A DNA stretch of 64,000 nucleotides from the NCBI RefSeq assembly GCF_003334355.1, contig NZ_QOWP01000015.1; one strand, given 5' to 3'. Positions 6,461 through 49,236 of the stretch are shown piece by piece; positions within the stretch are counted from its first letter, which is position 1, and each line of letters starts with the position of its first letter. The translations under genes and the position numbers were made by a program. The notes under the pieces are model-generated. The model did no database searches. It was not told the origin of the DNA and worked only from the letters and a program-made list of their open reading frames with translations. This DNA comes from Escherichia coli (GTDB lineage: Bacteria; Pseudomonadota; Gammaproteobacteria; Enterobacterales; Enterobacteriaceae).

Positions 6461-7633
<1,173 letters not shown>

Positions 7634-7636
7634 CCA

Positions 7637-7822
7637 CTTGCCGGATGCGGCGTGAACGCCTTATCCGGTCTACAGATCCGGCACCAATGTAGGCCTGATA
7701 AGACGCGCCAGCGTCGCATCAGGCATCGTGCACCAATTGCCGGATGCGACGTAAACGCCTTATCCGGCCTACGGTTCGGACTATTTGTAGGCACGATAAG
7801 ACGCGACAGCGTCGCATCGGGC
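7637..7822. repeat. BIME / cluster of REP elements downstream of fadA
   Basis: Several alternating-orientation copies of the REP core (gccggatgcggcgtgaacgccttatccggcctac and its complement) with spacers. Confidence 0.8.
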
Positions 7823-7884
7823 ATGGTTTGCCAGATACGTCATAGATCTAAATGCCACTGAATAAAGTTTTAGTTGCCGTTCTT

Positions 7885-7910
7885 CCCGCCTGTCAGGGGC
7901 GGGTTTTTTT
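7885..7910 (+). terminator. Intrinsic terminator of fadBA
   Basis: GC-rich hairpin cccgcc-tgtcag-gggcggg followed by T7 run on the + strand. Confidence 0.65.
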
Positions 7911-7915
7911 ATATC

Positions 7916-8617
7916 TCAGATAAATGCAAACGCATCGCCAAACAGGCGATCTTCCCGCGCATTACGCTCACTGCAAAACAGGTCACGGGCAATTTTCGCC
8001 ATCTCAAAACGTCCGGCAATATAGATATCATGCTCTGCCAGCGTACCATGATCCTGCAATACCGCCGTTAACACGGTACCAGTACGCCCACGCCAGCCTG
8101 CTTCCGGTTGTTCAACCACCGGCACCACTTGCAGACCAGGGTGCTTTAACGAAAGCGCCTCAAGCTCGCAGAGATCATACAGATGCCGCTCTTCACGCCC
8201 GCCCCAGTAAATGGTGATATCACGGTTTGGGTTACGCGCCAACGCTGTCAGCAAAATCGAGCGGGCATAAGAGAACCCGGTGCCGCCCGCAATCAAAATC
8301 ATCGGACGCTCTTCATCATCGCGCAGCCACGCTTCTCCGTGGGGAATATCGACCACGATTTGATGATCTTTGAGGATGCGGTCCATGACTGCTTTCGCGT
8401 AAAGGTTGATTTCAGAAGCGCCAATATGCAGCTCGATAAACCCTTTTTCATCCGGCGTCGAGGCCATTGAGAACGGACGTTTGTCGCGCTCATCCATCAC
8501 TACCATCAAATACTGACCAGCACGAAAAGAAAAGGCCGCGTCTGGCACGATGCGGACACGATATACGGTATCCGTGATAGCTTCTACCGAGGTCACTTTA
8601 CAGCTTAAGGTTGTCAT
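7916..8617 (-). CDS. fre: NAD(P)H-flavin reductase Fre
   Basis: Track ORF 7916..8650; recognised Fre N-terminus [21 protein letters not shown] starts at in-frame ATG 8617 (233 aa). Confidence 0.92.
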
Positions 8618-18974: not shown

Positions 18975-19790
18975 ATGGCAACAACACAACAATCTGGATT
19001 TGCACCTGCTGCATCGCCTCTCGCTTCGACCATCGTTCAGACCCCGGACGACGCGATTGTGGCGGGCTTCACCTCTATCCCTTCACAAGGGGATAACATG
19101 CCTGCTTACCATGCCAGACCAAAGCAAAGCGATGGCCCACTGCCAGTGGTCATTGTAGTGCAGGAAATTTTTGGCGTGCATGAACATATCCGCGACATTT
19201 GTCGCCGTCTGGCGCTGGAGGGGTATCTGGCTATCGCACCTGAACTTTACTTCCGCGAAGGCGATCCGAATGATTTTGCCGATATCCCCACGTTGCTTAG
19301 CGGTCTGGTAGCAAAAGTGCCTGACTCGCAGGTGCTGGCCGATCTCGATCATGTCGCCAGTTGGGCTTCCCGCAACGGCGGCGATGTTCATCGTTTAATG
19401 ATCACCGGATTCTGCTGGGGTGGACGTATCACCTGGCTGTATGCCGCGCATAATCCACAGCTAAAAGCCGCAGTGGCGTGGTACGGCAAACTGACGGGCG
19501 ACAAGTCGCTGAATTCACCGAAACAACCTGTTGATATCGCAACCGATCTTAACGCGCCGATTCTCGGCTTATATGGTGGTCAGGATAACAGCATTCCGCA
19601 GGAGAGCGTTGAAACCATGCGCCAGGCGCTGCGGGCTGCTAATGCGAAAGCAGAGATTATCGTGTACCCGGACGCCGGGCATGCATTCAACGCTGATTAT
19701 CGCCCGAGCTATCATGCCGCATCTGCAGAAGATGGCTGGCAGCGTATGCTGGAATGGTTTAAGCAGTATGGTGGGAAGAAGTCGCTGTAA
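18975..19790 (+). CDS. ysgA: Dienelactone hydrolase family protein (putative carboxymethylenebutenolidase) YsgA
   Basis: Track ORF from 18909; 271-aa form begins [12 protein letters not shown] at ATG 18975 after ACGGAGA RBS. Confidence 0.85.
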
Positions 19791-26594: not shown

Positions 26595-26628
26595 GTCGGA
26601 TGCGGCGTAAACGCCTTATCCGACTTAC
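26595..26628. repeat. REP element between convergent rhtB and rhtC
   Basis: ggatgcggcgtaaacgccttatccg REP core. Confidence 0.7.
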
Positions 26629-34772: not shown

Positions 34773-34808
34773 GCCGGATGCGACGTAAACGCCTTATCCG
34801 GCCTACAT
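34773..34808. repeat. REP element between yigE and uvrD
   Basis: gccggatgcgacgtaaacgccttatccggcctac REP core. Confidence 0.7.
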
Positions 34809-34878
34809 GACGTTGCAATTTATTGAATCTGAATGATTTTTAGGCCAAATAAGGTGTACAGCACCGCATCCCGCAACG

Positions 34879-49198: not shown

Positions 49199-49236
<38 letters not shown>

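Follow-up and report, generated by a model that had tools for sequence, protein, structure and literature searches.

Introduction

REP sequences are repeats dispersed through the genome and linked to the REP-associated Y1 transposase (TnpA-REP/RAYT). A GTAG foot belongs to their definition, and the BIMEs which contain them fall into two classes: BIME-1 elements combine Y with Z1 units, have a conserved long L linker which often carries an IHF site and occur as single copies, whereas BIME-2 elements combine Y with Z2 units, have short linkers and are arranged in tandem, with copy numbers that vary between strains (Ton-Hoang et al. 2012). BIME-2 elements are enriched for gyrase cleavage, mostly at their Y units, and a block of transcription raises, rather than lowers, this cleavage (Sutormin et al. 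2019). The K-12 copy of the locus studied here is catalogued as a BIME-2 of 280 bp under the name “fadA>-<fre” (Sutormin et al. 2019, supplementary table DS3). Another Y/Z2 array, REP325, acts as a partly Rho-dependent terminator and mRNA stabiliser (2026 preprint).

The 3′ UTR of fadBA is also the source of a small RNA. FadZ is a Hfq-dependent RNA of approximately 40 nt which RNase E cuts from the conserved end of this 3′ UTR. It has been seen on northern blots in both Salmonella and E. coli and represses the mRNAs of the porins OmpD and OmpC (Liu et al. 2023). In K-12 its 3′ end is at position 4,027,232 (Bar et al. 2021, Table 2B).

Here we describe the fadA–fre locus in a 64,000-nucleotide stretch of E. 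coli DNA (assembly GCF_003334355.1, contig NZ_QOWP01000015.1), hereafter the window. Our overall explanation, which we hold to be very probable, is that the locus carries a BIME-2 in the fadBA 3′ UTR which arrived in the Escherichia lineage, has expanded and contracted in register with its repeat unit, and plays a part both through gyrase and through stem-loops in RNA.

Layout of the fadA–fre spacer

The genes fadA and fre converge on a spacer of 282 bp (7634–7915); gene names were taken from RefSeq E. coli chromosomes which are 99.9–100% identical across the region. From the fadA stop codon (TAA at 7631–7633) the order along the spacer is 6 nt, a BIME-2 of 4.5 REPs, approximately 26 nt, FadZ with its terminator, and a final 3 nt before the fre stop codon (Table 1). 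The T-run of FadZ ends 5 nt short of this stop codon. On folding, the spacer was much more strongly structured than its shuffles on both strands (z = −9.5 on the plus strand and −6.3 on the minus strand). The K-12 reference annotation (NC_000913.3) has no repeat_region feature at this locus.

A preliminary description of the window had reported an alternating REP cluster at 7637–7822 between convergent fadA and fre. RefSeq annotation bears out the position, consensus searches recover the alternation, and the coordinates are no more than 3 nt off those of the four complete REPs, with a half-REP extending the array slightly. The same description had the spacer composed almost entirely of REPs, which overstates their share: the four REPs and their linkers account for 183 of the 282 bases (65%), or 202 bases (72%) counting the half-REP, and the distal third consists of FadZ and the fadBA terminator, neither of which the preliminary description mentions.

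Table 1. Features of the fadA–fre locus, in window coordinates
Feature	Position	Strand	Evidence
fadA (3-ketoacyl-CoA thiolase), last gene of the fadBA operon	6470..7633	+	ORF list; RefSeq records 99.9–100% identical
Mechanical ORF, 64 aa, through the REP array	7630-7824	-	ORF list
REP 1, Y type, CTAC end distal (iREP orientation on + strand)	7640..7673	+	0 mismatches to Y consensus
Tail-to-tail linker, 15 bp, AGATCCGGCACCAAT	7674..7688	.	architecture parse
Mechanical ORF, 69 aa, through the REP array	7652-7861	+	ORF list
REP 2, Z2 type	7689..7724	-	0 mismatches to Z2 pattern
Rfam naRNA4 (RF02564) match, REP 3 + linker + REP 2	7692..7769	-	87.8 bits; gathering score 59.5
Head-to-head linker, 14 bp, ATCGTGCACCAATT	7725..7738	.	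architecture parse
REP 3, Y type	7739..7772	+	1 mismatch to Y consensus
Tail-to-tail linker, 14 bp, GGTTCGGACTATTT	7773..7786	.	architecture parse
REP 4, Z2 type	7787..7822	-	Z2 pattern match
Truncated Y REP (5′ half), TGCCAGATACGTC	7829..7841	+	allele comparison
FadZ (STnc790), 3′ UTR-derived Hfq-dependent sRNA, ~40–45 nt	7868..7912	+	literature, coordinate mapping, conserved module
fadBA/FadZ intrinsic terminator: stem-loop 7885–7903, T7 7904–7910	7885..7910	+	terminator scan; fold
fre (NAD(P)H-flavin reductase), convergent with fadA	7916..8617	-	RefSeq annotation; translation

Anatomy and class of the array

Four REP palindromes lie within 7640–7822 in alternating orientation (Y+, Z2−, Y+, Z2−), the first of them beginning 6 nt past the fadA stop codon. 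A repeat finder resolved the array into two direct units at a spacing of 98–99 bp and with 87–88% identity, each of which holds two inverted palindromes. Matches to the Y and Z2 consensus are not expected by chance, with a mean of 0.00 in 100 dinucleotide shuffles of the window. All four REPs form imperfect hairpins, with a stem of 6–7 bp, a 2-nt bubble and a further stem of 3–5 bp. Their energies as DNA range from −9.7 to −12.9 kcal/mol (REP 1, −10.1; REP 2, −12.9, z = −5.1; REP 3, −9.7; REP 4, −11.0, z = −4.1), with z-scores between −2.9 and −5.1 overall, and every one of the four has the GTAG/CTAC tetranucleotide at the foot of its hairpin. As is characteristic of REPs, they are imperfect palindromes of 30–40 nt with a GTAG foot, extragenic and highly repeated; the array query matched a median of 36–37 places per genome across 5,426 E. 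coli genomes.

Beyond the fourth REP is the half-REP TGCCAGATACGTC, in whose place other strains have TGCCGGATGCGAC, the 5′ half of a Y REP; it marks the distal limit of the array in every Escherichia allele examined. No hairpin formed on folding this truncated REP (7829–7841).

The REP portion of the query also has matches on plasmids (127–138 places). Elsewhere in the window there is a degenerate Y REP at 26595–26628 (+), a Y REP at 34773–34806 (+) with a possible inverted partner at 34840–34853 (−), and a perfect Y REP at 49199–49232 (−), all of these being smaller than the fadA–fre array.

With alternating inverted Y and Z2 REPs, linkers of 15, 14 and 14 bp, and tandem units whose number varies between strains, the array is, judged by its sequence, a BIME-2: two tandem Y/inverted-Z2 units with short linkers and a terminal truncated Y. 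It departs from BIME-1/RIP elements in its Z2 partners, in having no long L linker, and in being tandem rather than single.

Copy number among E. coli

The preliminary description had stated that such clusters vary in copy number between strains and had suggested counting REPs at this locus in other E. coli genomes. This count has now been made, and the locus does vary, with 2, 4 or 6 REPs. We fetched 12 representative E. coli loci and parsed their spacer architecture, and took two systematic samples (39 and 59 rows) down a BLAST ranking of 5,426 complete genomes, hence the frequencies given here are sample estimates. In the sample of 59 chromosomes, 37 had 2 REPs, 16 had 4 and 6 had 6, consistent with the 24, 12 and 3 chromosomes respectively in the sample of 39; most sampled E. 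coli therefore carry one Y/Z2 unit. Spacers measure 180–191 bp with 2 REPs (Nissle 1917, O157:H7 and E. albertii), 271–282 bp with 4 REPs (this window, ATCC 8739 and S88-type strains) and 380 bp with 6 REPs (K-12 MG1655). There was no zero-REP allele among the ~98 sampled E. coli chromosomes, and the last Y/Z2 pair is kept in all of these as well as in E. albertii.

For 524 genomes (9.7%) no single alignment spanned at least 80% of the query, a share in keeping with that of the six-REP class. With the 951-bp query, 42 genomes were without a single alignment covering at least 80%, and IS insertions or rearrangements are possible in these.

Every allele starts 6 nt past the fadA stop codon and has a truncated Y at its end. 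The alleles are separated by indels of 91–99 bp which keep the register of the unit and have their breakpoints within REPs, the pattern expected of unequal recombination or slippage between direct repeats. The K-12 allele corresponds to the allele of this window with its second unit duplicated, and the FDAARGOS_433 allele to the same allele minus its first unit. This window and strain Eco_23-2678 have the two linker types in opposite order.

Distribution across Enterobacterales

To see which parts of the spacer are ancestral, we searched species-representative genomes for the FadA C-terminus with a degenerate pattern. The convergent arrangement of fadA and fre is kept across Enterobacterales with spacers of 45–209 bp, including in Yersinia, Hafnia, Erwinia, Pantoea, Pectobacterium, Cedecea, Kosakonia, Citrobacter, Shimwellia and others. 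Y/Z2 REPs were found at the locus only in E. coli and E. albertii among the Enterobacterales loci scanned, with REPs located by Hamming scans, which miss REPs containing indels, and with one REP unit each in loci L007 and L045 assigned by eye.

Other loci have REP-like palindromes of their own, with CTAC/GTAG feet, between fadA and FadZ. These were observed in Kosakonia cowanii (L070), Citrobacter sp. R56 (L059) and Pseudocitrobacter faecalis (L040), in each case within the first ~100 nt past the fadA stop codon. It may be that REP families land repeatedly in the gap between fadA and FadZ.

The far side of FadZ also varies. In L050, L057 (Citrobacter youngae) and L082 (Citrobacter sp. Cu233), the FadZ module lies ~130–160 nt past the fadA stop codon whereas fre is 1.7–2.3 kb away from it, which points to an insertion between FadZ and fre. 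Enterobacter sp. Ag1 (L021), Cedecea neteri (L069) and Enterobacter sp. Cy-643 (L103) have a second hairpin between FadZ and fre which reads as a U-tailed terminator on the fre strand; such a hairpin is also present in L041, L051, L066 and L070, and E. coli is without one.

FadZ and the fadBA terminator

The K-12 3′ end of FadZ maps to position 7912 of the window, directly after the T-run, and an RNase E-like AG/UUUU site suggests the position of its 5′ end here. In 20 of the 26 Enterobacterales loci, ranging from E. coli to Yersinia, there is an almost unchanged module of ~42 nt, GTTTAGTTGCCGTTCTTCCCGCCTGTCAGGGGCGGGTTTTTT, which can be written in degenerate form as GTTT(T)AGTTGCCGTTCTTCCCGCCTGTCAGGGGCGGGT(6-7). 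Across the Enterobacterales loci the terminator hairpin begins anywhere from 30 to 252 nt past the fadA stop codon. As described for FadZ, the segment is the conserved 3′-terminal part of the fadBA 3′ UTR and ends in a Rho-independent terminator. No sigma-70-like promoter was predicted in 7300–8300, consistent with FadZ being processed rather than a primary transcript. FadZ itself has no match in Rfam 15. A match to the anti-hemB family over the FadZ terminator (7847–7912) was below threshold (21.8 versus 49.5 bits) and was taken as chance. FadZ is thus an RNA that has already been described, and the array sits just upstream of it.

Proposed origin and working

The way in which the array works is proposed here from what has been published on its family and on its K-12 counterpart. 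The array probably entered the fadA–fre spacer in the Escherichia lineage, and unequal recombination or slippage between its 98–99 bp units would then have produced the alleles with 2, 4 and 6 REPs.

At the DNA level, the Y units would provide a transcription-independent site of gyrase binding and cleavage between the converging transcription units. The preliminary description had attributed gyrase binding to such clusters, and for the K-12 allele of this locus the claim finds support in mapped cleavage sites: none with ciprofloxacin, one with rifampicin and ciprofloxacin, none with microcin B17 and three with oxolinic acid (Sutormin et al. 2019, DS3). Gyrase cleavage is documented, modestly, for the six-REP allele of K-12 only. 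IHF would not be expected to bind at the array.

At the RNA level, the fadBA transcript on the plus strand and any fre read-through on the minus strand would both gain stable stem-loops, which would block 3′–5′ exonucleases and could partly attenuate transcription. [quoted passage not shown] The preliminary description had also credited these clusters with stabilising upstream mRNA. General stabilisation of this kind is plausible but depends on context, and terminal REPs had no genome-wide effect on mRNA half-life (2026 preprint).

Since RNase E cuts FadZ from the fadBA transcript, transcription of fadBA must cross the array to yield FadZ. Once RNase E has released FadZ, the fadBA mRNA would probably have the REP hairpins close to its new 3′ end. 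No U-tail follows the FadZ hairpin on the minus strand, and fre has no U-tailed terminator of its own here. Transcription of fre probably extends into the array, which would attenuate it or be the point to which its transcripts are trimmed. RNA-seq in rich medium gave a baseMean of 4307 for fre and 273 for fadA (Harris 2026, supplement); with fre expressed so far above fadA, most transcription into the spacer under such conditions probably comes from fre. A REP less than 16 nt from a stop codon is reported to give stalled terminating ribosomes (Liang et al. 2015, as relayed in PMC12306157), and REP 1 falls inside this distance from the fadA stop codon.

Alternative explanations

Three readings assign the array a different identity. 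The preliminary description had such clusters binding IHF, which would make this array a BIME-1/RIP-type element recruiting IHF, and for this there is just the general point that some BIMEs bind IHF (Ton-Hoang et al. 2012). IHF binding is a property of BIME-1, whereas the Z2 partners, the linkers of 14–15 bp, the tandem repetition and a spacer free of the IHF core consensus WATCAANNNNTTR make the array a BIME-2, to which the remark on IHF does not apply. The consensus had no exact match in the spacer (7634–7915) and was matched only at 19524 in the whole 64-kb window, and the published catalogue classes the locus as BIME-2 rather than BIME-1 (Sutormin et al. 2019, DS3). We have rejected recruitment of IHF and attach next to no credence to it. 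It is also highly improbable that the array is the gene for a naRNA4-like nucleoid-associated non-coding RNA, whose Y/Z2 transcript would bind HU and condense the chromosome. The naRNA4 match exceeds its gathering score and is the only above-threshold Rfam match at the locus, and the minus strand on which it lies would be transcribed if fre reads through. The naRNA4 model, however, was built from a single Y/Z2 pair of REP325 and therefore matches any BIME-2 unit; the match indicates membership of the Y/Z2 sequence family and nothing specific on function. REP325/naRNA4 itself produced no measurable nucleoid compaction and acts as a local 3′ UTR element (2026 preprint). Coding of small proteins by the array region is vanishingly unlikely. 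Both ORFs (64 and 69 aa) are indeed present in the mechanical ORF list, but the symmetry of palindromic repeats predicts an ORF on either strand, REP copy number alters the length of these ORFs or abolishes them, and a CDS annotation over the array is absent from all RefSeq records examined, hence we dismissed them as palindrome artefacts.

A further reading accepts the array as a BIME-2 but takes it as essentially neutral selfish DNA which has been amplified in a tolerant spacer, with no role in gyrase action, mRNA fate or FadZ output. Natural isolates vary freely between 2, 4 and 6 REPs, and such variation in healthy strains suggests that selection on REP number is weak, so a large part of the array may be selfish DNA that is tolerated and not a tuned device. 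In other genera spacers of 45–209 bp suffice and are without Y/Z2 REPs, and the null result for terminal REPs on genome-wide half-life (2026 preprint) points the same way. Against neutrality, the last Y/Z2 pair was never lost in the ~98 E. coli chromosomes or in E. albertii, the K-12 allele is cleaved by gyrase in vivo (Sutormin et al. 2019), and exonucleases are documented to be blocked by stable hairpins in a transcribed 3′ UTR. We consider a wholly neutral array somewhat unlikely, and a largely neutral, tolerated repeat remains a serious rival to a BIME-2 with gyrase and RNA stem-loop roles.

Significance

As it stands, the significance of the array is small: it is a textbook BIME-2, the locus is in published repeat and gyrase maps, and polymorphism is usual for the family. 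The literature we consulted on the locus does not state that a variable BIME-2 parts fadA from FadZ in Escherichia, in a natural series of 2, 4 and 6 REPs. Two corrections to annotation follow, the labelling of the array as a BIME-2 of the gyrase-binding type rather than an IHF-binding BIME-1, and the addition of FadZ and the fadBA terminator.

FadZ lacks a promoter of its own and is separated from the fadA stop codon by the BIME-2, and this leads to the speculative and rather doubtful idea that REP copy number (2, 4 or 6) serves as a strain-specific dial on the ratio of β-oxidation enzyme to FadZ. If so, more hairpins would mean more attenuation before FadZ and better protection of the fadBA mRNA after the RNase E cut, and the ratio between the enzyme and a porin-repressing sRNA would shift with coding and promoter sequence untouched. 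Should REP number tune FadZ output or fadBA stability, the 2/4/6 alleles would be a handy natural series for studying how REPs act in 3′ UTRs.

Comparison with known systems

The array is the allelic counterpart of the element already catalogued in K-12, and as a kind of element it is already known. It has in common with the BIME-2 elements of K-12 (fadA–fre, sucB–sucC and eco–mqo) the alternating Y and Z2 REPs, the short linkers and the tandem units of ~98 bp, as well as the extragenic siting at 3′ ends and a copy number that varies between strains. Set against the K-12 fadA–fre element itself there is no qualitative difference, with two Y/Z2 units (4 REPs) here and three (6 REPs) in K-12. 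Inverted REP pairs which include Y are also common to BIME-1/RIP elements, whereas Z1, the long conserved L linker with its IHF site, and the single copy are BIME-1 features absent here.

The published FadZ and the one in this window are identical in conserved sequence, terminator and K-12 3′ end, and FadZ makes up the distal 45 nt of the spacer. It is not a part of the REP array but an older neighbour, which the array parts from the fadA stop codon: its terminator hairpin begins 252 nt past the stop codon here, in contrast to as little as 30–60 nt in other genera.

REP325/naRNA4, in the yjdM–yjdN spacer, is likewise a tandem Y/Z2 array, and one unit of the fadA–fre array scores above the gathering score of its model. 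REP325 has 12 hairpins between tandem genes, while the fadA–fre array has 4 between convergent genes and upstream of a small RNA, and the HU-related function claimed for naRNA4 is disputed. Like REP325, the fadA–fre array probably acts as a 3′ UTR hairpin array, both terminator and stabiliser.
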